64,000 nucleotides of DNA from Faecousia sp. GTDB taxonomy: Bacteria > Bacillota > Clostridia > Oscillospirales > Oscillospiraceae. The position numbers and the translations under genes were made by a program. How positions within the stretch are numbered: the first letter of the stretch is position 1; each line of letters opens with the position of its first letter. Of this stretch, positions 3 through 11,093 are shown piece after piece. Location of the stretch: assembly GCA_045650665.1 (NCBI GenBank), contig JAZRRL010000019.1:8454-72453 (forward strand). Direction: 5' to 3'. The notes beneath the pieces are model-generated. The model searched no databases. It worked only from the letters and a program-made list of their open reading frames with translations, and was not told the origin of the DNA.

Positions 3-806
3 AAGACCATTTATGTGGTAGGCGACAGCGCCGGTAATTATGCATTTATGGATGGCAGCGTTATGGACGAGATTTCTGATGATATCTATGCCGATGCACT
101 GGCCATCGTGCTGGACACCTCTGCCCGTCACCTGATCAGCGACGAGCGGTATCCCACCGCCCATCGCACTGCTCGCATGGATCACCACATTTTTGTGGAA
201 AAGATCTGCGATGTAGAGGTAACGGATACATCCTACGAAAGCTGCTGCGGTCTGGTAACCGAGTTTGCGCTGGCTAGTGGGCTGAAGCTCTCCCCTGCCA
301 GTGCCAAAGCGCTGTATACCGGCATGGTCACCGACTCCGGCCGTTTCCGTTACGATTCCACCACTGCCCAGACCTTCCGTCTGGCATCTGCGCTGATGGA
401 GCAGAAATTCGACACCAACGATATCTACCGCAATCTGTATGCCGACGATTTTTCAAAAATTCGTCTGAAGGCACAGTTTGTGCTGAAGATCAAATTCACT
501 GATTGTAATGTAGCCTACATCTACACCACAAAGGAAGAACTTTCTGAGCTGTGCGTGGACACCTTTACCGTTTCCCGTGGCATGGTAGGCACCATGTCCG
601 ACATCAAGGGTGTGGATATTTGGGTTAATTTCACCGAAACCGAGCAAGGCGTGCTGTGTGAGCTGCGCTCTTCTAAGTATAACATCAACCCTATTGCCGT
701 AAAATATGGCGGCGGCGGTCACGCAAAGGCCAGCGGCGCTTGTGTGGCAAGCAAGGAGATCGCCATGCAGATGCTCAGCGACCTGGACGCACTGACAAAG
801 GAGTAA
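3..806 (+). CDS. DHH/DHHA1 family phosphoesterase (NrnA-like oligoribonuclease/pAp phosphatase), 5' end outside window
   Basis: DHH motif (RMDHH), TDSGRF, GGGH motifs; frame is open back to position 3. Confidence 0.88.
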   Translation, partial: KTIYVVGDSAGNYAFMDGSVMDEISDDIYADALAIVLDTSARHLISDERYPTAHRTARMDHHIFVEKICDVEVTDTSYESCCGLVTEFALASGLKLSPASAKALYTGMVTDSGRFRYDSTTAQTFRLASALMEQKFDTNDIYRNLYADDFSKIRLKAQFVLKIKFTDCNVAYIYTTKEELSELCVDTFTVSRGMVGTMSDIKGVDIWVNFTETEQGVLCELRSSKYNINPIAVKYGGGGHAKASGACVASKEIAMQMLSDLDALTKE

Positions 807-809
807 CCT

Positions 810-1796
810 ATGAATACAAAAACTATGCAGGCTATTCTGCAGAAAATCAAAGACTATGACCGCATTGTCATCACCCGGCATTTCCGCCCGGATGGCGACG
901 CTGTTGGCGCCACCAAGGGCTTTGCTGCTATACTCCGGCTGAGCTTCCCGGAAAAGGAAATTCTGCTGATCAACGAGGATCAGTCCGAGTATCTGTCCTT
1001 CCTGGGCGGTGAAAGCGAACCCATTGCGGAAGATAAATATGCCGATGCTCTGGGTATTATTCTGGACACCGGCACAATCGACCGGGTATCCAACAAGAAG
1101 ATCACCCTCTGCAAGGAGATCATCAAGATCGACCATCATATTGATCACAATCCCTACGGCGATATCTCCTGGGTGGAAGATTTCCGCAGCTCTGCCTGCG
1201 AAATGGTAGTGCGGTTCTATGAGGCCTTTGCAAATGAGCTGAAAATTGACACAGAAGCCGCCACATATCTGTATGCCGGCATGGTCACCGACTCCGGCCG
1301 TTTCCGTTTCAGCTCCGTTTCCGGCGATACCATGCGCCTGGCAGGTATCTTACTGGATCAGGGCATCGATACCGATGTGCTGTTTGCAAATCTGTACCTG
1401 AAAGAATTTGATATGTTCAAATTTGAGTCTTATGTGTACGACAAAATGTGCATCACCGAAAATGGCGTTGCCTACATTTATGTAGATCGCGCCATGCAGG
1501 AGAAATTTAACCTTTCTCAGGAAGATGCATCTTCTGCTGTCGGCTACATGGACACCATCAAGGGTGCGCTGTGCTGGATCGCATTTATTGAAGCTCCCGG
1601 CGACGAAAAGGTCATTCGGGTGCGTCTGCGTTCCCGTTTTGTCACCATCAACACCATCGCAGAAAATCACCACGGCGGCGGTCACGCCTGCGCCAGCGGT
1701 GCTACTGTCTATTCTGAGGAAGAGATGCAGCAGCTGATTGCAGAAGCCGACGCAAGAGTAAAAGAATACAAAGAAACCCATGAGGGCTGGTTATGA
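810..1796 (+). CDS. nrnA: DHH/DHHA1 family phosphoesterase (NrnA-like)
   Basis: HFRPDGDA, IDHH, TDSGRF, GGGH motifs. Confidence 0.88.
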   Translation: MNTKTMQAILQKIKDYDRIVITRHFRPDGDAVGATKGFAAILRLSFPEKEILLINEDQSEYLSFLGGESEPIAEDKYADALGIILDTGTIDRVSNKKITLCKEIIKIDHHIDHNPYGDISWVEDFRSSACEMVVRFYEAFANELKIDTEAATYLYAGMVTDSGRFRFSSVSGDTMRLAGILLDQGIDTDVLFANLYLKEFDMFKFESYVYDKMCITENGVAYIYVDRAMQEKFNLSQEDASSAVGYMDTIKGALCWIAFIEAPGDEKVIRVRLRSRFVTINTIAENHHGGGHACASGATVYSEEEMQQLIAEADARVKEYKETHEGWL

Positions 1797-2515
1797 GAAT
1801 TTTAATTACAAACGATGACGGCATTTATGCCGAGGGCGTACTGCCTCTGGTGCAGTGGGCCAAGACCAAGGGCGAAGTAACTGTCGTTGCACCTAAGGTG
1901 GAACAGAGCGCCAAGAGCCACGGCATTGAAATCCACAAGGCTTTTGAAGCCAAGAAGGTGGATCTTTTCGAAGGTGTTGACGCATGGGCAGTGGATTCCA
2001 CCCCCGCAGACTGTGTACGTCTGGCAATTTTGGGCATGCACATGGAGTTTGATTTGGTGATCTCCGGTATCAACCGAGGTTTGAACATTGGCCGTGACAT
2101 CATGTACTCCGGTACTGTTTCGGCAGTTTTCGAGGCCGGCAATCTGGGCGTGAATGCCATGGCAGTGTCTACCTCCCCCGCCTACTATCAGGATGCTGCC
2201 AAGGAAATGGATAAAATCTGGGATTTCATGGTGAAATACGATCTGTTCAGCAAAAACAGTATGTATAACATCAATATTCCTACCGGCGGCAGTGACGAAT
2301 TCCGTTTCACCCGTCAAGGTGGTAACTATTATTCCGACAAATTCCGCCCTGATGAGAATGATATGTATTTCCCCTGCGGTATTGACGTATTTGCCGCATG
2401 TAACAGCAAGGAATTTGACACCGATGCGGTACTGGTGGACAAGGTCATTTCCGTAATGCCTTTGACATTGGATCGGACAAATCTGGAGCTGTACCAGGAA
2501 CTGAAAAATCTCTAA
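1793..2515 (+). CDS. surE: 5'/3'-nucleotidase SurE
   Basis: ILITNDDG, GTPADC-like STPADC, SGINRG and YSGTV motifs; 4-bp overlap with upstream gene. Confidence 0.93.
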   Translation: MRILITNDDGIYAEGVLPLVQWAKTKGEVTVVAPKVEQSAKSHGIEIHKAFEAKKVDLFEGVDAWAVDSTPADCVRLAILGMHMEFDLVISGINRGLNIGRDIMYSGTVSAVFEAGNLGVNAMAVSTSPAYYQDAAKEMDKIWDFMVKYDLFSKNSMYNINIPTGGSDEFRFTRQGGNYYSDKFRPDENDMYFPCGIDVFAACNSKEFDTDAVLVDKVISVMPLTLDRTNLELYQELKNL

Positions 2516-2519
2516 AAAC

Positions 2520-2545
2520 AAGGCCGGTGCGTTTGCACCGGCCTT
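2520..2545. terminator. Bidirectional hairpin terminator between convergent genes
   Basis: aaggccggtgc-gttt-gcaccggcctt. Confidence 0.75.
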
Positions 2546-2550
2546 TGCCT

Positions 2551-3750
2551 TTACATTGTATAATTGTCGAAATACCCCTGAATCAGGATGATGGGCGTAC
2601 CCTTGTCACCGGAACCGGAGGTCAGGTCACACAAAGAGCCGATCAGGTCTGTCAACCGACGGGGTGTTGTACCCTGAGATGCCATGGAGCCAGCCAAATT
2701 ACCCTTGCTGCGGATACGTTCCTCAATCGCCTGCTTCAGCTGTGCACCGGATAGACCGGCAAAATCGTTATCTGCCAGATATTTCAGCTTCAGTTCATTG
2801 GGAGTGCCCTCCAGACCGGAGGTATGGGCAACAGACACGCTGGGGTCTGCCAGTTCCCAAATCTTACCCACGGGATCCTTGAATGCACCGTCACCGTAGA
2901 CCATCACTTCAATATGCTTGCCGGTGATCTTCAAAAACCGCTCCTGAATATCCAGTACCAGATCGCCACATTCCTTGGGGAACAGCTTGATAGTGGTTTC
3001 CGTAGACTTATTGGAGCCAAGCAGGCCAAACTTTTCGTTGTAACCACTGCCGTCCACAGATTCTGTCAGAATATCATCCAGACCGCAGATCACCTGGGCA
3101 CCGGCTGCCTTCAAGATCCGCTTTGTGCGGGCACGGCTGTGAATATCGCAGGTCAGCACATTTTTGGTGTAGTCCAAAATGGCGCGGGGATTGTTGGCCA
3201 GGATGATTTCCGCCTCACAGCCTTCTTCCCGAATCAGGTCGCCATAGTATTTCACGTAGTCCACCAAAGTAAAGGGGTGCAGGTTTTCGCCGAACAGTTC
3301 CCGATACTTCGCCTCTGTCAGCACATCGCTGTAGGGATTGATACCCGCCTCATCCAGACGGTCCAGACTCACCAGCTCGTTGCCCACCTCATCGGAGGGG
3401 TAGCTGAGCATCAGTACAATCTTCTTGCTGCCACGGGCAATACCCCGCAGGCAGATAGCAAAACGGTTGCGGGACAGAATGGGGAAAATCACACCCACAG
3501 TCTCGCCGCCCAGTTTGCTGCGTACATCCTTTGCAATGGCATCCACAGAAGCATAGTTACCCTGGGCCCGTGCCACCACGGATTCCGTAATGCCTACCAC
3601 ATCCCGGTCACGCAGAGCAAAGCCTTCGGCCTGTGCCGCCTCCATCACACTTGCAACCACAATGTTTGCCAAATCGTCACCCTGCCGGATAATGGGGCAG
3701 CGAATGCCACGGGATGTCGTACCAACTTTTCTTTCCATAATGAACCTCAT
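2551..3750 (-). CDS. F420-0:gamma-glutamyl ligase (CofE)-like family protein
   Basis: N-terminus GIRCPIIRQGDDL...DVVGITESVVARAQGN and C-terminal GSGDKGTPIILIQGY typical of the clostridial CofE-like family; likely start is MERK, slightly downstream. Confidence 0.75.
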   Translation of the reverse strand: MRFIMERKVGTTSRGIRCPIIRQGDDLANIVVASVMEAAQAEGFALRDRDVVGITESVVARAQGNYASVDAIAKDVRSKLGGETVGVIFPILSRNRFAICLRGIARGSKKIVLMLSYPSDEVGNELVSLDRLDEAGINPYSDVLTEAKYRELFGENLHPFTLVDYVKYYGDLIREEGCEAEIILANNPRAILDYTKNVLTCDIHSRARTKRILKAAGAQVICGLDDILTESVDGSGYNEKFGLLGSNKSTETTIKLFPKECGDLVLDIQERFLKITGKHIEVMVYGDGAFKDPVGKIWELADPSVSVAHTSGLEGTPNELKLKYLADNDFAGLSGAQLKQAIEERIRSKGNLAGSMASQGTTPRRLTDLIGSLCDLTSGSGDKGTPIILIQGYFDNYTM

Positions 3751-3913
3751 TTCTCAGGAGCATTTTTACAGTACAGTTATACCGCAATCCGCCGGTTTTT
3801 TCAATATTTTTTTCGCATATGTCGAAAAAAACAGCATTTAAAACAATTTTTCTTGTGTGAACTGAAAAAATCTTAGGAAAACGCAAAAATTAGATAAAAA
3901 AATATAAAAAGAT

Positions 3914-3942
3914 TTGCAATTTCTTTTTCAATATGGTATACT
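3914..3942 (+). promoter_or_regulatory. sigma70-type promoter of ppdK
   Basis: TTGCAA-17 bp-TATACT with TG extension. Confidence 0.7.
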
Positions 3943-4032
3943 GGTACGGCTAAATACGGGTATTGACCCAAAGCAACACGAATTCATCAATTCTGGGCCT
4001 ATGGCCCGTCAATAAACGAAGGGAGTTTTATA

Positions 4033-6657
4033 ATGTCTCACAAGTATGTTTACCTATTTACCGAAGGTAACGGCTCTATGCGCGAGCTGCTGGGCGGTAA
4101 GGGCGCAAACCTGGCCGAAATGACCAACATTGGTCTGCCCGTTCCTCAGGGCTTCACCATTTCTACCGAAGCCTGCACCCAGTACTACGAGGATGGCCGC
4201 CGTATTAACGATGATATTCAGGCAGAAATCATGGAGTATGTTGAAAAGCTGGAAGGTATCACCGGCAAGAAGTTCGGTGACCTGGAGAATCCTCTGCTGG
4301 TTTCCGTCCGTTCCGGCGCCCGTGCTTCTATGCCCGGCATGATGGACACCATTCTGAACCTGGGTCTGAACGAGCAGGTTGTTGAGGTTATGGCTGCCAA
4401 GTCCGGCAACGCTCGCTGGGCATGGGACTGCTACCGCCGCTTCATCCAGATGTACTCCGACGTTGTTATGGAAGTCGGCAAGAAGTACTTTGAAGCCCTC
4501 ATCGACGAGATGAAGGAAAAGAAGGGCGTTACTCAGGACGTTGACCTGACCGCTGAAGATCTGAAGGAGCTGGCTGCTCAGTTCAAGGCCGAGTACAAGG
4601 CTAAGATCGGTGCAGAGTTCCCCGCTGATCCCAAGGAGCAGCTGATGGGCGCCATCAAGGCTGTTTTCCGTTCCTGGGACAACCCCCGTGCAAACGTCTA
4701 CCGTCGTGACAACGATATCCCCTACTCTTGGGGTACTGCTGTTAACGTGCAGTCCATGGCCTTTGGTAACATGGGCGACGACTGCGGCACCGGTGTTGCT
4801 TTCACCCGTGACCCCGCTACCGGCGAAAAGAAGCTGATGGGCGAGTTCCTGACCAATGCTCAGGGCGAAGACGTGGTTGCAGGTGTTCGTACCCCCATGC
4901 CCATTGCACAGATGGCTGAGAAGTTCCCCGAAGCTTTCAAGCAGTTCGTGGAAGTTTGCTCCATTCTGGAAAACCACTATCACGACATGCAGGATATGGA
5001 GTTCACCGTCGAGCACGGCAAGCTGTATATGCTGCAGACCCGTAACGGCAAGCGTACCGCTCAGGCTGCTCTGCAGATCGCTGTTGACCTGGTTGCTGAA
5101 GGTCACAAGACCGAGGCTGAGGCCGTTCTGATGATCGACCCCCGTAACCTGGACACTCTGCTGCATCCCCAGTTCGATGTGAAGGCTCTGAAGGCTGCTA
5201 CTCCCATCGGCCGTGGTCTGGGTGCTTCTCCCGGAGCTGCTTGCGGCCAGGTCGTCTTCTCTGCTGAAGATGCTGAAGCTTGGAAGAACGCCGGCAAGAA
5301 GGTTATCCTGGTTCGTCTGGAAACCTCTCCCGAGGATATCACCGGCATGAAGGCCGCTCAGGGTATCCTGACCGTCCGTGGCGGTATGACCTCCCACGCA
5401 GCGGTTGTTGCCCGTGGTATGGGTAAGTGCTGTGTTTCCGGCTGTGGCGAGATCAACATGGACGAGGAGAACAAGAAATTCACTCTGGCAGGCAAGACCT
5501 ATGCTGAGGGCGATTGCATCTCCATCGACGGTTCTACCGGTAACATTTACGACGGCCTGATTCCCACTGTTGACGCTGAGATTTCCGGCAACTTTGGTAT
5601 CATCATGGGCTGGGCTGACAAGTTCCGTGTCCTGAAGGTTCGTACCAATGCCGATACTCCCACCGACGCTAAGAAGGCTCGTGAGCTGGGCGCAGAAGGC
5701 ATCGGCCTGTGCCGTACCGAGCACATGTTCTTCGAGGCTGATCGTATCGCTGCATTCCGCGAAATGATCTGCTCCGACACCGCTGAGGAGCGCGAGGCTG
5801 CTCTGGCTAAGATTCTGCCCTATCAGCAGTCCGACTTCGAGAAGCTGTACGAGGCTCTGGAAGGTATGCCCGTGTGCATCCGTTTCCTGGATCCCCCGCT
5901 CCACGAGTTCGTTCCCACCACTGAGGAAGACATCGCTCTGCTGGCTAAGACTCAGGGCAAGACCGTTGAGCAGATCAAGGCTATCATTTCCTCCCTGCAC
6001 GAGTTCAACCCCATGATGGGTCACCGTGGCTGCCGTCTGGCTGTCACCTACCCCGAGATCGCAAAGATGCAGACCAGCGCTGTTATCCGCGCTGCCATCA
6101 ATGTGCAGAAGGCTCATCCCGATTGGAATGTGCTGCCTGAGATCATGATCCCCCTGGTTGGCGATGTGAAGGAATTGAAGTACGTCAAGAGCGTGGTTAT
6201 CGCTACTGCTGACGCTGAGATCGCCGCTGCCGGCATTGAGCTGAAGTACGAGGTCGGTACCATGATCGAAATCCCCCGTGCTTGCTTGACTGCAGACGAA
6301 ATCGCACAGAATGCTGACTTCTTCTGCTTCGGCACCAACGACCTGACTCAGATGACCTATGGCTTCAGCCGTGACGATGCAGGCAAGTTCCTGAACGCTT
6401 ACTATGATTCCAAGATCTTTGAGAACGATCCCTTCGCAAAGCTGGATCAGACCGGCGTTGGCAAGCTGATGAACATGGCCTGCACTCTGGGTCGTGCAAA
6501 TAATGACCACCTGCACATCGGTATCTGCGGTGAGCACGGCGGCGACCCCACATCCGTGGAGTTCTGCCATGCAATCGGTCTGGACTATGTGTCCTGCAGC
6601 CCCTTCCGCGTACCCATCGCCCGCCTCGCCGCCGCCCAGGCTGCCATTAAGGGCTAA
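4033..6657 (+). CDS. ppdK: Pyruvate, phosphate dikinase
   Basis: 874 aa; GGKGANLAEM, SVRSGA, GGMTSHAAVVARG phospho-His motif, GTNDLTQ, GICGEHGG; strong codon bias. Confidence 0.98.
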   Translation: MSHKYVYLFTEGNGSMRELLGGKGANLAEMTNIGLPVPQGFTISTEACTQYYEDGRRINDDIQAEIMEYVEKLEGITGKKFGDLENPLLVSVRSGARASMPGMMDTILNLGLNEQVVEVMAAKSGNARWAWDCYRRFIQMYSDVVMEVGKKYFEALIDEMKEKKGVTQDVDLTAEDLKELAAQFKAEYKAKIGAEFPADPKEQLMGAIKAVFRSWDNPRANVYRRDNDIPYSWGTAVNVQSMAFGNMGDDCGTGVAFTRDPATGEKKLMGEFLTNAQGEDVVAGVRTPMPIAQMAEKFPEAFKQFVEVCSILENHYHDMQDMEFTVEHGKLYMLQTRNGKRTAQAALQIAVDLVAEGHKTEAEAVLMIDPRNLDTLLHPQFDVKALKAATPIGRGLGASPGAACGQVVFSAEDAEAWKNAGKKVILVRLETSPEDITGMKAAQGILTVRGGMTSHAAVVARGMGKCCVSGCGEINMDEENKKFTLAGKTYAEGDCISIDGSTGNIYDGLIPTVDAEISGNFGIIMGWADKFRVLKVRTNADTPTDAKKARELGAEGIGLCRTEHMFFEADRIAAFREMICSDTAEEREAALAKILPYQQSDFEKLYEALEGMPVCIRFLDPPLHEFVPTTEEDIALLAKTQGKTVEQIKAIISSLHEFNPMMGHRGCRLAVTYPEIAKMQTSAVIRAAINVQKAHPDWNVLPEIMIPLVGDVKELKYVKSVVIATADAEIAAAGIELKYEVGTMIEIPRACLTADEIAQNADFFCFGTNDLTQMTYGFSRDDAGKFLNAYYDSKIFENDPFAKLDQTGVGKLMNMACTLGRANNDHLHIGICGEHGGDPTSVEFCHAIGLDYVSCSPFRVPIARLAAAQAAIKG

Positions 6658-6672
6658 TATTTCCTAATAATG

Positions 6673-6700
6673 AATCCCCTCGGAGCAATCCGAGGGGATT
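6673..6700 (+). terminator. ppdK terminator
   Basis: aatcccctcgga-gcaa-tccgaggggatt. Confidence 0.85.
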
Positions 6701-6720
6701 TGTGTATAACGATTGTTCGG

Positions 6721-6927
6721 TTACAGTTTTTCAAAAACCATTGTTGCCTGAATTCTGTCGCCACCGCCGAAACCAGAACTATGTGCAGATGCGGTTGTGA
6801 TTGTATGTAATCTATAACCCTTCGCCGCTTGTGCATTAATAACGTTTTCCAATTCGCCTAAATTCTTGGATGCTGTACCGATAAGTTTTTCCTTTAGTGT
6901 TACCTGTAAAACTACATATTGTGGCAT
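6721..6927 (-). CDS. DUF4177-like small protein (cassette 1 cargo)
   Basis: 68 aa; LENVINAQAAKGYRL...ATMVFEK pattern; own TTTACA-17-TATAAT promoter on minus strand near 6958-6987. Confidence 0.75.
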   Translation of the reverse strand: MPQYVVLQVTLKEKLIGTASKNLGELENVINAQAAKGYRLHTITTASAHSSGFGGGDRIQATMVFEKL

Positions 6928-7017
6928 GATTTTACCCCCTTTTATTAAATGGTATTTTAATTATAGAATAATTTGTCATATTTGTAAAGAGGGAAAGAAT
7001 ATATGGTTTTTAAGCAA

Positions 7018-7063
7018 TTTCCCTCTTTTGCTGATAGCAGCCCAGGCTGCTATCAAGGGCTAA
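7018..7063 (+). repeat. att-like repeat R1: box + palindromic core + ppdK tail (AQAAIKG*)
   Basis: tttccctcttttgc tgatagcag cccaggctgc tatcaagggctaa. Confidence 0.92.
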
Positions 7064-7081
7064 TTGCTTAACCTAATAATG

Positions 7082-7109
7082 AATCCCCGTGGATTGCTCC
7101 ACGGGGATT
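7082..7109 (+). terminator. Terminator following R1
   Basis: aatccccgtgga-ttgc-tccacggggatt followed by T run. Confidence 0.85.
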
Positions 7110-7165
7110 TTTTATATTGCAAACACCTACTATTAAGATTATAATATAATCAAGAGGTGAGGCGA

Positions 7166-7372
7166 ATGATAAGCTCAACAGAACAAAGGTTAATTGAGGC
7201 AATGATTGACTACGGTGCAAACGAGGAATTGATACATGTGTTGTGTTCCGCTTTGTCGTCGGAGCAGCAAGAAAACGCCATCCATCTTATGCAGAGACAT
7301 TATCAAAAATACAGGGAAGTAACAGAAGAGGATATGCTAAAAGTGCTTCTGATATTAACAAAGCCATCCTGA
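7166..7372 (+). CDS. Hypothetical small helical protein (cassette 2 cargo A)
   Basis: TTGCAA-17-TATAAT promoter and AAGAGGTGA RBS upstream; ATG at 7166 preferred over GTG at 7157. Confidence 0.65.
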   Translation: MISSTEQRLIEAMIDYGANEELIHVLCSALSSEQQENAIHLMQRHYQKYREVTEEDMLKVLLILTKPS

Positions 7373-7446
7373 GAAATCCGCGGGATTGCCCCATCTATTA
7401 CAGAGAACTGCACCCTACGCTATAATGCAATCAAGAGGTGAAACAT

Positions 7447-7614
7447 ATGTGCAAAGACCAAGAGTCCACTAAAACTGGGTTCAGACCCATAACCAAAGAA
7501 GATGGGCTTGCGTATATAGAATGGCTTAAAAACGGAGGCAGAGATGTCTTAGCAGACCACATATTTACAGACGATTTTAAGGCAAAAACGCCCAAGGAAG
7601 ACAATAGGAAATAA
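7447..7614 (+). CDS. Hypothetical 55-aa protein (cassette 2 cargo B), not in ORF track
   Basis: MCKDQESTKTGFRPITKEDGLAYIEWLKNGGRDVLADHIFTDDFKAKTPKEDNRK*; TATAAT and AAGAGGTGA directly upstream; stop abuts R2. Confidence 0.55.
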   Translation: MCKDQESTKTGFRPITKEDGLAYIEWLKNGGRDVLADHIFTDDFKAKTPKEDNRK

Positions 7615-7660
7615 TTTCCCTCTTTTGCTGATAGCACCACAGGCTGCCATCAAGGGCTAA
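7615..7660 (+). repeat. att-like repeat R2 (tail PQAAIKG*)
   Basis: tttccctcttttgc tgatagcac cacaggctgc catcaagggctaa. Confidence 0.92.
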
Positions 7661-7719
7661 GTTTCAATAAAATGTCCGCCGCTGGATTTCCAGCGGCGGA
7701 TATAATATAATCGGGGCCT

Positions 7720-8607
7720 TTATTTAGGTTTCGTTACTTGACGGATGCCGATCAGGATCAGCACTGCGCCCAGTAATAGCGTAATGTTCATAGGCTCTTT
7801 GAGGAATACCACACCTGCAAAAACCGAGCAAAGGGTGGACAGCGCACCAAAGGAGGATATCTTGAACACCGACATTTTTCCGGAGGCGTAGTTGACCAGA
7901 AGCTGTGCCGCAACGGAGCAGAGCAATCCAAGACACAGCACGGACACCAGGTATTCCACATGAAGCAGGGGCTCCACAAAGGTTTTGATGTTCCAATCCA
8001 CAGAGTTCATACCCATCAGGGAGAAGACCAAAGCGGCATTTGCCAGCACCAAAAAGGAACGTTCGAAGGTGGTGAACTCCTCTGCGGCTTTTCTATTGAT
8101 GGTTTTGTAAATGGCGGAGGACAGCAGGGTCAGCAGCAGGATAATAATGCCTAAAGGCTTTATAACGCCCAGTTCTTTACCGGATACTGTCATAAGAATC
8201 ACGCCTGCTACCGGCATAAGACAGAACAGCGCCTGCCGGGGTGTGGGATATTCCCGGAGAAACAGGGCGCCTGTACCGATGGTCACCACGGGCACTACCG
8301 CCAGCACCAGACCGGAAATAGTTGTGTTGGTATAAAGGAGGCCGTAGGTTTCCAGAAAATAGTAAACTACCTGCATAATCAGCATCAGCACGATGGGCTT
8401 CCAGTTTTTGCCCTTGAAGGAAAGCTTCCCCTTTCCCAAAAGCATAAGGACCACCATAAACAGAGCTGCAATCAGAAATCTGTGCGCCAGCATCACATTG
8501 GGGTCAGGGGATGCGGACAGACCAATCTTGGTAAACAAAAAGCTGAATCCCCAGATGACATTGCCCAGAGCAGCGCAAATTGCCGGCAATAGTGACTTGT
8601 TTTTCAA
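7720..8607 (-). CDS. DMT/EamA family transporter (cassette 3 cargo)
   Basis: About ten hydrophobic segments, IWGFSF and duplicated EamA pattern; TTG start at 8607 after GGAGG; own TTTACA-17-TATAAT promoter. Confidence 0.88.
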   Translation of the reverse strand: MKNKSLLPAICAALGNVIWGFSFLFTKIGLSASPDPNVMLAHRFLIAALFMVVLMLLGKGKLSFKGKNWKPIVLMLIMQVVYYFLETYGLLYTNTTISGLVLAVVPVVTIGTGALFLREYPTPRQALFCLMPVAGVILMTVSGKELGVIKPLGIIILLLTLLSSAIYKTINRKAAEEFTTFERSFLVLANAALVFSLMGMNSVDWNIKTFVEPLLHVEYLVSVLCLGLLCSVAAQLLVNYASGKMSVFKISSFGALSTLCSVFAGVVFLKEPMNITLLLGAVLILIGIRQVTKPK

Positions 8608-8756
8608 AAAGACTACCTCCCGAAACAATTTTTTCAATTATATATTAGAAAAAAGGAAATGTAAAGGCGTCTTTCCGGTTAAAAAGATTTCCTGCAACTA
8701 TTTTTATCAAGCTTTGCTTTTGCTGCGGGCTTGCAAAGCAGACATATCGACAATCG

Positions 8757-8860
8757 TTTCCCTCTTTTGCTGATAGCAACCCAGGCTGCAATTAAAGAAT
8801 CTAAGTAATTAGATTTATAATGCAAACCAACTCCTCTCGGAGCAATCCGAGGGGAGTTTT
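8757..8860 (+). repeat. att-like repeat R3 with tail QAAIKESK* and terminator
   Basis: 104 bp; direct repeat of 9344-9447 with 1 mismatch in the 81 bp from the core onward. Confidence 0.95.
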
Positions 8861-8924
8861 ACACCCATTGCAAACATTTCCTTAAAATGATATAATAGAG
8901 AAAAGGCAAAAGGAGGTATGCTGT

Positions 8925-9338
8925 ATGGTTCTCAAAGAATTTCGCATCACCCATAGCACACTGATCGAGCATTATCAGTTTATCGAAGCGCATCTTGAGG
9001 GTATTTATGCCGCTATTTCCGGCAAGCCTTTTGGGGATGGGATAAAAGATGTAGAGAAAAACAGCATCAGCGGTGTTATCAGAGAGATCAGAGATATTGA
9101 AAAAGAGAAGAGAATGCAGGTCTTTTCGGAGAATGAGTACACACAGCTGCGACAAATCATCGAAAGGCGGAACTTTTGGTGTCACTGCTGTTATTTTGAA
9201 ATGTCCTTTGATCTGAAAACCGGCGGTCCTGCCAGAGTCAGAGATGTTCAGACGCTTTTTGAGGACCTTAAAACAGCCGAGCATTGGCGAGAACAACTGT
9301 TTCACAAGAAAATTGATTTACTGGAACAAAAACGGTAA
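8925..9338 (+). CDS. Hypothetical protein with HEPN-like RxxxxH motif (cassette 4 cargo)
   Basis: 137 aa, predicted helical; RNFWCH at 9168-9185; TTGCAA(8868)-17-TATAAT(8891) promoter and AGGAGG RBS. Confidence 0.6.
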   Translation: MVLKEFRITHSTLIEHYQFIEAHLEGIYAAISGKPFGDGIKDVEKNSISGVIREIRDIEKEKRMQVFSENEYTQLRQIIERRNFWCHCCYFEMSFDLKTGGPARVRDVQTLFEDLKTAEHWREQLFHKKIDLLEQKR

Positions 9339-9343
9339 CTCTA

Positions 9344-9447
9344 TTTCCCTCTTTTGCGGTCTGTCGCCCAGGCTGCAATTAAAGAATCCAAGTAATTAGA
9401 TTTATAATGCAAACCAACTCCTCTCGGAGCAATCCGAGGGGAGTTTT
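9344..9447 (+). repeat. att-like repeat R4 with tail AQAAIKESK* and terminator
   Basis: tttccctcttttgc ggtctgtcg cccaggctgc aattaaagaatccaagtaa ... ctcggagcaatccgag. Confidence 0.95.
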
Positions 9448-9501: not shown

Positions 9502-10194
9502 ATGGATGTATTCGATTTTTCAAAAAAGGCCGTGCTTTGGGATCTGGACGATACCCTTTACAGCCGCAGGGAAGCTGCTCGCAAAATGTTCCCCGGTATG
9601 TTCCGTCAGTGCCTTTATACGGATCGAAGCGACGCCTTTCTCAACGAAGCTGCCGCATTCATGATGACCAAGGTCAAGCGCAACAGCATGACCCACGAAG
9701 ATGCATTCCGTGCCCTTTTGAAACGTTACCCTTCAGACAAGCCCTATGTCCGGTCTGAATGTCTTGCATATTATTACGCCCATATCCGTGATTTTGCAGT
9801 TCCCTTTCCCGAAACAATCGAGATCATTCAAAAGCTAAAGGCGCATGGTCTGAAAATGGCCATCGTCACCAATATCACCCCTGAACTGCTGGAGCATCAG
9901 AAGAAAAAAGTTCAAGCGCTGGGAATTGCGACTTTGTTTGATGCCATTGTTTTTTCCGCAGAGCTGGGTGTCCATAAGCCTGACAGACGTATTTTTGACC
10001 ATACTGCCTCTCTTTTAGGTGTTCCCAACGAAGATTGTCTGTTCGTGGGAGATGACCCTGAATCGGACGTTGCCGGTGCTTTGGCTGCCGGTATGGAAGC
10101 TGTTTGGCTGGATCATTGGAATTCTGACAATATTTTTTACAACACTCCCCTCGTACATCAGGTGCATTCTGCGTCAGAATATTTCGTGCTGTAA
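9502..10194 (+). CDS. HAD-IA family hydrolase
   Basis: WDLDDTL motif I, VTN, KP and GDDPESD motifs; TTGCAA(9454)-17-TATAAT(9477) promoter. Confidence 0.92.
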   Translation: MDVFDFSKKAVLWDLDDTLYSRREAARKMFPGMFRQCLYTDRSDAFLNEAAAFMMTKVKRNSMTHEDAFRALLKRYPSDKPYVRSECLAYYYAHIRDFAVPFPETIEIIQKLKAHGLKMAIVTNITPELLEHQKKKVQALGIATLFDAIVFSAELGVHKPDRRIFDHTASLLGVPNEDCLFVGDDPESDVAGALAAGMEAVWLDHWNSDNIFYNTPLVHQVHSASEYFVL

Positions 10195-10229
10195 TATGCA
10201 GCAATTTTAGGATGATCGGAGGATTTTCC

Positions 10230-11093
10230 ATGAAGATTTCAACAGAAATCGCCTCGGCAGCGCGCATTGTTGGCATGAAGAAAGCTGTAGAGCTTTACGC
10301 AAAAGCAGGTTTTGACGCCTGGGATTTTTCCATGCTTGATATGTGCCGAATCGATTGGAATACAATGCTGCCTATGCCCACCAACAGTCCCCTCAGCGGC
10401 AAGGATTATCTTGCCTTTGCCCGGGAATTGAAGAATATTGGTCTTGACAACGGAATCGTGTGCAACCAGTCCCACGCACCTTTCCCCGTAGAGGTAAAAG
10501 CCGTCCGCAGTTATTTAAAACGCGCCATCGAATGCACCGCAGAGGCAGGCGGCAAAATTTGCATTATTCATCCTGACAATGGCAAAACCGCTGAGGAAAA
10601 TGCCGAAATGTATCATGAGCTTTTGCCTTTTGCGAAAGCATGCGGTGTTAAGATCGCAACGGAAAACATGTGGAATTGGAACGATGAGAAAAACGAGTCC
10701 TGCTTTGCTGCTTGTGCAACCGCAGAGGATTTCAAAAAACATCTTGATGTAATCCATGATGACCATTTTGTTGCTTGTCTTGATTTGGGGCATGCGGAAA
10801 TGCGGGGCTCCGGCAACGGTGCTGTGTATATGATAAAAACCCTGGGTCATCATCTGCAAGCATTGCATATTCACGACAATGACCGCTGGCATGACAGCCA
10901 TCAAATCCCCTTTTCTATGGATATCGATTTTGATTCCATCGTAAAAGCCCTCAAGGAAGTGGGTTACAGCGGATATTTTACATTGGAAGCAAATCAATTC
11001 CTTACAAATTATCACGAAAGCAACGTCTTTGAAGGCATGGTAGCACTCCGGAAAAGCGCACGAAAGCTTGCTGATCAATTTGAACAGCTGTAA
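10230..11093 (+). CDS. Sugar phosphate isomerase/epimerase (xylose isomerase-like TIM barrel)
   Basis: ATEN, DLGH, HIHDN, TLE metal-binding motifs; GGAGG RBS before ATG 10230. Confidence 0.88.
   Translation: MKISTEIASAARIVGMKKAVELYAKAGFDAWDFSMLDMCRIDWNTMLPMPTNSPLSGKDYLAFARELKNIGLDNGIVCNQSHAPFPVEVKAVRSYLKRAIECTAEAGGKICIIHPDNGKTAEENAEMYHELLPFAKACGVKIATENMWNWNDEKNESCFAACATAEDFKKHLDVIHDDHFVACLDLGHAEMRGSGNGAVYMIKTLGHHLQALHIHDNDRWHDSHQIPFSMDIDFDSIVKALKEVGYSGYFTLEANQFLTNYHESNVFEGMVALRKSARKLADQFEQL

Follow-up and report, generated by a model that had tools for sequence, protein, structure and literature searches.

The gene ppdK of the Faecousia sp. assembly GCA_045650665.1 (contig JAZRRL010000019.1), which encodes pyruvate phosphate dikinase, is followed by a row of small gene cassettes, each closed by a copy of one repeat (R1 to R4; Table 1), and the question that this locus raises is what the dyad symmetry in the core of the repeat is for. 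A preliminary description of the window, i.e. the whole stretch of 64,000 nt that was analysed here, had compared this core with the site of a tyrosine recombinase. Our comparison with homologous sites from other genomes and metagenomes leads to a different enzyme class. The repeat most likely marks the right end of small mobile cassettes stacked behind ppdK, and the dyad is probably the core of an attachment site of large serine recombinases (LSRs), which would integrate mobile DNA in the final codons of this gene.

In the following, site positions 1 to 60 are numbered from the first base of the conserved box, position 1 of R1 being window position 7018. R1 comprises the box TTTCCCTCTTTTGC (7018-7031), the left arm TGATAGCA (7032-7039), the spacer GCCCAGGC (7040-7047), the right arm TGCTATCA (7048-7055) and the final stretch AGGGCTAA up to 7063. 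The perfect 8-bp arms around an 8-bp spacer, which extend to an inverted repeat of 11 bp around the central CA (7043-7044), are present in the sequence just as first described, and the arms and spacers of R2, R3 and R4 also read as claimed, R4 with its deviating left arm GGTCTGTC. The box is found in four exact copies in the window, compared with a chance expectation of 0.94 at up to two mismatches, and it is absent from the rest of the 1.7-Mb genome. The ppdK-type core CCCAGGCTGCNATNAA occurs five times in the window (0.61 expected).

The conservation of the dyad was investigated with a scan of a genome collection (one genome per species; pattern box-N12-CAGGC), which recovered at least 120 stretches, almost all of them from metagenome-assembled genomes (MAGs) of Acutalibacteraceae, Oscillospiraceae, Faecousia and related Clostridia from animal and human guts. 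Together with metagenome scans this provided a set of 270 to 275 unique sites from about 165 loci of gut Oscillospirales, the genome part being among the matches listed. A metagenome scan with the dyad alone, in which the box was left unconstrained, retrieved 66 sites, and 64 of them carry the box or a variant with one or two mismatches at the same offset. The consensus of 122 unique sites reads C T G A T A G C A at positions 14-22, with ATAGCA conserved at 87-99%, followed by [G/C] C A at positions 23-25, CAGGC and TGC[T/A]AT[C/T]A. The left-arm consensus TGATAGCA (T.66 G.75 A.94 T.92 A.87 G.99 C.96 A.94) thereby mirrors the right arm TGC[T/A]AT[C/T]A, and across the whole set the spacing between the non-coding left arm and its mirror image, the right arm that ppdK encodes, is fixed. 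Arm complementarity (275 unique sites) has a mean of 5.9/8 in register and of 0.5-3.7 in shifted registers; counted around the central CA, the mean is 7.4/11 versus at most 3.9. This motif profile bears out the observation of the preliminary description that an arm foreign to ppdK mirrors the ppdK-encoded one, as well as the conserved symmetry and spacing on which its proposal depended. Perfect dyads are few (40/275 sites over 8 bp and 2/270 over 11 bp), which makes R1 an unusually perfect copy. The left side of ppdK itself is already partly symmetric around CA (5.9/11), because the AAAQAA codons are GCN repeats, and the element arm improves the symmetry at positions 17, 18 and 22, exactly where ppdK cannot. 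The central CA is present in 270/275 unique sites; the search patterns required CAGGC, so that the invariance of this motif is partly imposed, and a relaxed finder allowing at most one mismatch yielded few variants. We conclude that the dyad is no chance feature and that it represents the conserved core of a putative recombination site.

The arm of R4, which had been suspected to mark an old or inactivated site, is a member of a recurring class (C[G/T]GTCTGCA, then NCC-CAGGC, often with a C-rich box) that is found in 13/275 unique sites from other genomes. Decay therefore lacks support, and R4 is better read as a variant that is possibly cognate to another LSR type.

Does the symmetry reflect the binding of a protein, or does it act as a folded single strand, either as an attC-like DNA hairpin or as an RNA stem that ends the cassette transcripts? 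R1 itself would fit the second idea, as it folds with -19.8 kcal/mol (z = -6.2 versus shuffled sequences) into an extended palindrome, and a perfect palindrome with 24-bp arms occurs at the same place behind ppdK in the loci L136 and L158. However, R2, R3 and R4 fold no better than their shuffles (z = -0.2, -1.3 and -2.3), and no match above threshold to a known RNA family was found in Rfam. Moreover, the left arm is blind to the wobble base of the right arm: position 19 is T in 12/93 sites with A at position 34 and in 29/182 of the others. Only 45% of the sites have a Watson-Crick pair at 19/34 in the middle of the stem, and compensatory changes at the pairs 19/34, 16/37 and 22/31 are lacking among the 275 unique sites. 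The pattern argues for a pair of protein half-sites and not for a hairpin, and a function as folded strand is very improbable. A dimeric transcription factor that binds the dyad as operator of the promoter-bearing cassettes would also agree with a palindromic 8-8-8 site, which is typical of operators, and with the position of each repeat ahead of a terminator-promoter kit. Yet the site lies upstream of the terminator and away from the promoters, a displaced gene end is always included and no regulator gene is common to the arrays; we regard this explanation as extremely improbable.

Two kinds of deviating sites deserve mention. The palindrome at L136 (9886-9937) and L158, both from human gut metagenomes, reads ATCTTATTTCTCATTGATAGCAGC-CTGT-GCTGCTATCAATGAGAAATAAGAT and follows ppdK and a cassette for a 134-aa protein; its left half exactly mirrors the displaced tail, it has no box and its centre is inverted relative to the canonical one. 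At L093, L094 and L100, the first junction after a large gene shows a sequence resembling the upstream codons of ppdK in place of the box (e.g., TTCTATCGCCCGGTG-TACTGCA versus CCCATCGCCCGTCTG in ppdK), which hints that the element-side half-site may descend from a diverged copy of the ppdK end.

The comparison of empty and occupied sites allowed us to delimit the exchange. Seven sister species of the genus g90 have an intact ppdK end (...GCAGCT CAGGC[A/T]GC[T/A]ATCAAGTTCCCCCGCGACTAA) followed by a terminator. In the genome G090, this native tail and its terminator are displaced behind a single cassette of about 0.5 kb, where they directly follow box-CTGATAGCA-CCA, and ppdK now ends in CAGGCAGCTATT AAGGGCTAA followed by a foreign terminator. 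The two resulting junctions, attL and attR, have only CAGGCAGCTAT in common (positions 26-36, 11 bp), which places the exchange within this interval, and the interval includes the central CA. The comparison proves that the ppdK end of G090 has received a real insertion that, as far as the sequences tell, was precise and conservative. It also indicates that the box, the left arm and positions 23-25, i.e. the first three bases of the "spacer", are part of the element. The last codons of ppdK constitute the candidate chromosomal acceptor, an attL/attB-like site.

This result bears directly on the scenario of the preliminary description, a loxP-, FRT- or att-like core of a tyrosine recombinase in which strands would be exchanged over the 8-bp spacer NCCCAGGC between 8-bp arms, with the box as arm-type or accessory site. 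The 8-8-8 geometry does resemble loxP and FRT, and the location of the crossover was partly right, since the exchange in G090 took place at CAGGC or in its immediate vicinity. The spacer loses its first three bases from the shared identity: attL has GCT and attR has CCA at positions 23-25, which are polymorphic in all sites, so that there is no identical 8-bp overlap. The mixture of ppdK-like GCN with CCA or GGA at these positions could be explained in the tyrosine scenario by heteroduplex resolution in the overlap. Regarding the enzyme, the window genome does encode five tyrosine recombinases and no serine recombinase, but none of the five is located on the contig of the array, and a tblastn search with them against the loci up to L126 returned a single, unrelated match, upstream of ppdK in L043. 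The C35-type integrase showed no association with arrays across genomes, and the Xer-like C26b is a universal single-copy gene. Likewise, the most frequent families of the 232 open reading frames (ORFs) in arrays or flanks do not include an integrase. The enzymes that are physically joined to the sites are LSRs, as described below, and a tyrosine recombinase is therefore unlikely to be responsible. Comparison with the dif sequences of B. subtilis and E. coli revealed no dif-like site by similarity, and two scans of viral collections for a phage-borne attP produced only chance matches within coding sequence.

The linked enzymes were found upstream of the arrays. At least 3 kb of sequence upstream of the first repeat is available for 33 loci, and 19 of them have no ppdK there. 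A Pfam analysis of the 91 ORFs in these 19 upstream regions identified nine with Resolvase and Recombinase domains, namely six full-length LSRs (608-631 aa) and three truncated paralogues (271-283 aa). The LSRs represent three types with 39-49% mutual identity, and tblastn searches with them led to 12 repeat-bearing loci. In all 12, the LSR gene is located on the strand of the repeats, 127-2544 nt upstream of the first repeat, and no repeat lies further upstream. For type C (L045, L142) the reading frame even continues into the site (...CTGCA|CAGGC|TGC.AT.AA). Four genomes with 85-100% identical type A LSRs harbor canonical arrays 0.4-3.9 kb downstream on the same contig and no repeat upstream, and each of these type A genes is preceded by a truncated paralogue. 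Full-length LSR relatives (at least 41% identity) are present in seven array-positive genomes and in none of 20 negative ones; among genomes not selected for their LSR, the numbers are 3/28 and 0/20. The proteins resemble CcrB, CcrC and XisF in NCBIfam (under the family cut-offs) as well as the A118 integrase and SPbeta SprA in the PDB (over the recombinase domain). With 104-146 bits for the CcrB/CcrC models, they score far below the cut-off of 900 and are hence not Ccr orthologues.

One LSR island could be inspected over a larger distance. On contig C83 of the genome G219 (1-26000; L210 and L207), the LSR is located behind more than 25 kb of island genes, which include an operon for DEAD/ResIII and PIF1 helicases, a protein kinase, a PP2C phosphatase, a tubulin/FtsZ-like GTPase and a transglutaminase-like protein. 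The island looks like a conflict or defence module.

Several observations weigh against an assignment of the dyad to LSRs. Serine recombinases are entirely absent from the window genome, which is 94% complete, and this LSR family is missing from most array-positive MAGs. MAGs are often devoid of mobile elements, which makes the absence weak evidence, and incompleteness in combination with a supply in trans could explain it. Furthermore, ppdK, an LSR island and an array were not found together on one contig in the LSR-bearing genomes; ppdK is on a separate contig or missing there, and the assemblies break at this place or the island exceeds 25 kb. In the sites of LSR type C, the arm joins CAGGC without the three variable bases, which moves the symmetry axis off CA. 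The other objections concern the mosaic structure of the sites. Where one cassette recurs in different contexts (copies with at least 95% identity), positions 14-16 and 23-25 differ between the copies as frequently as between random pairs, with 36-52% of the comparisons at positions 14-16 and 58% at position 23. The linkage disequilibrium between adjacent blocks has its minima at 13|14 and across CAGGC, and a simple serine-recombinase exchange predicts neither of these two patterns. Finally, the left limit of cassette identity is variable: it follows the tail or the terminator in some cases and coincides with the -10 box or the ribosome-binding site in others. The crossover mapping from polymorphisms that had been envisaged in the preliminary description yielded dispersed breakpoints, for the same-cassette pairs as well as for linkage disequilibrium.

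The two variable triplets (14-16 and 23-25; window positions 7031-7033 and 7040-7042 in R1) flank ATAGCA, and in sites with the canonical arm they are associated neither with each other nor with the right arm. The box, in contrast, is tied to the cargo, its variable position 7 differing in 3% of the comparisons between cassette copies of at least 95% identity versus 31% expected. The triplets thus behave as if they were unlinked from the cargo, which does not fit a simple serine-recombinase exchange. An apparent linkage between arm and cargo dissolved once the clusters were inspected.

Such mosaicism would be expected if no dedicated system was active today and if cassettes were shuffled by homologous recombination between the linkers of about 150 nt (box, dyad, tail, terminator, promoter), the dyad being a relic. 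The breakpoints between identical cassettes and their flanks are indeed scattered through the linker, cassette order varies between genomes, the window genome has no LSR, and the 3' part of its ppdK shows 90% nucleotide identity to another genus (G121) and only 78-83% to its own. However, a relic hardly accounts for the strong conservation of the non-coding left half in 270 sites across families, for the precise and conservative insertion in G090 or for the strict orientation and position of the LSR genes relative to the sites. In addition, adjacent repeats are barely more similar than random ones (0.73 versus 0.70 at positions 14-25), which rules out target duplication and strong concerted evolution as explanations of the repeats. 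We consider homologous recombination as the sole process distinctly unlikely; site-specific insertion is probably overlaid by further mosaicism that stems from homologous recombination or branch migration in these conserved linkers. A target duplication of the CRISPR or casposon type was discarded on the same ground, the repeats flanking a cassette being hardly more alike than random pairs.

The LSR interpretation leads to the following model. Each repeat would be a hybrid attR-type site. Its left half would correspond to the element-side P half-site (a box of 13-14 bp, three variable bases, ATAGCA and three variable bases), and its right half to target sequence (GGC TGC-AT-AA and the rest of the ppdK tail) that has been displaced from ppdK. 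A recombinase dimer could occupy the two mirror arms and exchange the strands by a 2-bp staggered cut inside the invariant CAGGC, where the symmetry axis of the canonical site on CA would point to the crossover dinucleotide. The box, for which the role of an accessory or arm-type site had been proposed, would be better understood as the outer part of the element-side half-site, contacted by an outer domain of the enzyme, than as an arm site of the lambda type. Every element would bring a ppdK-like tail and a terminator, and because of this equipment its integration would rebuild a functional ppdK end that is ready for the next element, while serial integration would shift the older ones downstream, as in the composite islands of the staphylococcal cassette chromosome (SCC) at rlmH. 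The four cassettes of the window are non-autonomous, because they have no recombinase gene and the genome has no serine recombinase. They may have been inserted by a recombinase supplied in trans, or the array may have been inherited or transferred as a block.

More tentatively, the ppdK end of many gut Oscillospirales might host an equivalent of the integron that works with serine recombinases, which seems to us possible rather than probable. One-gene mini-cassettes equipped with a promoter, a single element-type half-site (box and ATAGCA arm) and an imitation of the ppdK tail would be captured, and perhaps excised, in trans by visiting LSR islands, the acceptor would be regenerated with each insertion, and the triplets 14-16 and 23-25 would record repeated recombination and not drift.

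SCC elements such as SCCmec stack at rlmH and regenerate their acceptor site. The arrays behind ppdK share with the SCC elements at rlmH (orfX), which are moved by CcrAB or CcrC, the insertion into the last codons of a housekeeping gene whose end is restored, the tandem accumulation including members without recombinase (pseudo-SCC), and the element-bounding repeat that holds the 3' end of the gene and has inverted-repeat ends. The best NCBIfam matches of the array-linked recombinases are CcrB and CcrC, but with 136-146 bits versus 900. The arrays differ in the target (ppdK), in the hosts (gut Oscillospirales) and in the integron-like size of most units, which measure 0.3-1.5 kb and contain one gene with its own terminator-promoter kit. 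The att sites of large serine integrases from phages and ICEs (phiC31, Bxb1, A118, SPbeta SprA) are similar with respect to the imperfect dyad around a non-palindromic central dinucleotide, the hybrid product sites and the integrase gene beside one end of the element. Unlike these, the left half of our sites has about seven extra bases between inner arm and outer box compared with the right half, and the element-borne right half imitates the target, so that the acceptor is apparently regenerated.

PvCTn-like conjugative transposons of Bacteroidota have the same ppdK motif as their attB (PMC11005914). Those elements are large and conjugative, belong to another phylum and use tyrosine integrases, whereas serine recombinases and mostly mini-cassettes are found here. 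The shared target thus looks like a convergent use of a conserved quasi-palindromic coding motif and provides no evidence for a tyrosine enzyme in our arrays. Integrons and clusters of attC sites lacking integron-integrases (CALINs) resemble the arrays in their polar succession of one-gene cassettes with a conserved end site and diverse cargo, and in the many arrays without a nearby recombinase gene. However, the ppdK arrays have no adjacent IntI, no attI with a Pc promoter and no structure-conserved attC hairpin; their cassettes possess own promoters, and their repeats are conserved in sequence and include the displaced gene end. With loxP and FRT, the repeats R1-R3 have inverted arms around an asymmetric 8-bp centre in common, but they lack an associated tyrosine recombinase, their centre is not conserved over 8 bp and their arms measure 8 and not 13 bp. 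A literature search on the box sequence and on integron-like cassettes in Clostridia returned nothing relevant and no description of the system.

Should our interpretation hold, the dyad would serve as recognition core for a gene-capture system that is widespread in uncultured gut Clostridia, integron-like in its one-gene cassettes with diverse accessory and defence-like cargo, and yet run by LSRs, as is SCCmec. Its site would be short and defined, consisting of a 25-nt element half-site and the ppdK tail. This could account for the repeated targeting of the AAAQAAIK motif of ppdK by unrelated recombinases, i.e. by tyrosine recombinases in Bacteroidota and apparently by serine recombinases here, given that its coding sequence, a GCN repeat, is intrinsically quasi-palindromic. 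LSRs with compact, well-defined sites would also be of practical interest for genome engineering.

Table 1. The ppdK gene and its cassette array in the window (positions in nt)
Feature	Position	Strand	Content	Basis
ppdK	4033..6657	+	pyruvate phosphate dikinase, 874 aa	Pfam PPDK_N, PEP-utilizers, PEP-utilizers_C
ppdK final codons	CAGGC at 6637-6641; core pattern match 6635-6650		...GCC GCC GCC CAG GCT GCC ATT AAG GGC TAA	
T0	6673..6700	+	terminator hairpin after the current ppdK tail	sequence, repeat family D2
Cassette A	6701..7017		DUF4177 protein, 68 aa, 6721-6927, minus strand	ORF list, Pfam
R1	7018..7063	+	box, arms, displaced ppdK tail; stop codon 7061-7063	
T1	7084..7110	+	terminator	
Promoter-like site	7117-7146		TTGCAAAC-N17-TATAAT, after T1	
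Cassette B	7111..7614	+	two small ORFs, 7157-7372 (71 aa) and 7447-7614 (55 aa)	
R2	7615..7660	+	box + TGATAGCA + CCACAGGC + TGCCATCA + AGGGCTAA	
Cassette C	7703..8756		EamA-family transporter, 305 aa, 7720-8637, minus strand	
R3	8757..8808	+	box + TGATAGCA + ACCCAGGC + TGCAATTA + tail AAGAATCTAAGTAA	
Cassette D	8856..9343	+	137-aa protein, 8925-9338, without Pfam match	
R4	9344..9395	+	box + variant left arm GGTCTGTC + GCCCAGGC + TGCAATTA + KESK* tail	
T4	9416..9442	+	terminator, then promoter-like site	
HAD hydrolase gene	9502-10194		after T4; distal end of the recognisable array	
TIM-barrel gene	10212-11093		after T4; distal end of the recognisable array	

The organization of the window array is summarized in Table 1. 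A terminator is also present between R2 and Cassette C, and R3 is followed by a terminator and a promoter-like site ahead of Cassette D. The stop codon of the second ORF of Cassette B directly touches the box of R2, whose left part from the box through CAGGC (30 nt) has an identical copy in G090. The tail of R3 corresponds to another ppdK C-terminus, KESK*, and R4 differs from R3 in a single base from position 24 through the terminator. Relatives of the Cassette D protein are encoded in the arrays L120 (78% identity) and L090 (74%).

The genome of the window has a second ppdK 3' end on contig C9 (3.1 kb), outside the window, with 81.5% amino acid identity over 173 residues, and this copy exhibits the genus-typical tail and downstream region, as in G222. 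Taking into account the foreign affinity of the window ppdK mentioned above, either ppdK and the array may have been gained by homologous exchange or the bin may be a mixture of two strains.

R1 is nested in an extended palindrome of 62 nt (window 7010-7071; TTAAGCAATT...CCCT...dyad...AGGG...AATTGCTTAA), and the first half of the box (TTTCCCT) resembles the mirror of the KG* tail (AGGGCTAA) with about seven extra bases (CTTTTGC) inserted. A small inverted repeat spans the final codons of the displaced ppdK tails (window 8795-8813 and 9382-9400, and many other loci), their stop codon and the bases that follow. Its arms co-vary between the tail types AATCTAAgtaaTTAGATT, AAGCAAgtaaTTGCT, ATGAAataaTTCAT and CAACAAgtaaTTGTTG, and it is possibly a conserved stem whose loop holds the stop codon.

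The arrays comprise up to seven repeats in 8 kb, with a median spacing of 746 nt (range 260-4606), and ppdK is located upstream on the same strand in 54 loci. A typical unit, of the size and equipment given above, often ends immediately at the repeat, a stop codon touching the box in 151/270 sites. The cargo families include LRR_5, DUF4886, GDSL lipases, methyltransferases, PD-(D/E)XK nuclease, nucleotidyltransferases and helix-turn-helix proteins, and there is no recombinase among the most frequent families of the 232 array or flank ORFs. In L020 (2463-2723) and L145 (1500-1804; oriented coordinates), two repeats enclose "cassettes" of 260-304 nt without obvious ORF, which possibly represent non-coding RNA cargo or empty units. 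L042 and L166 contain two copies that are otherwise 97% identical, and the same terminator stem after the repeat has opposite loop orientation in them (GAAGAAATTC versus GAATTTCTTC). In L196 (contig C17 of G121), an element of 8.4 kb lies between the ppdK tail and a repeat with the variant arm TGCGTAGCA. Its small resolvase was rejected as a mobiliser of the cassettes, being no commoner in array-positive genomes. The genes of the element encode a ParA-like ATPase fused to a CHAP domain, this resolvase of 195 aa and two proteins of 1303 and 521 aa.

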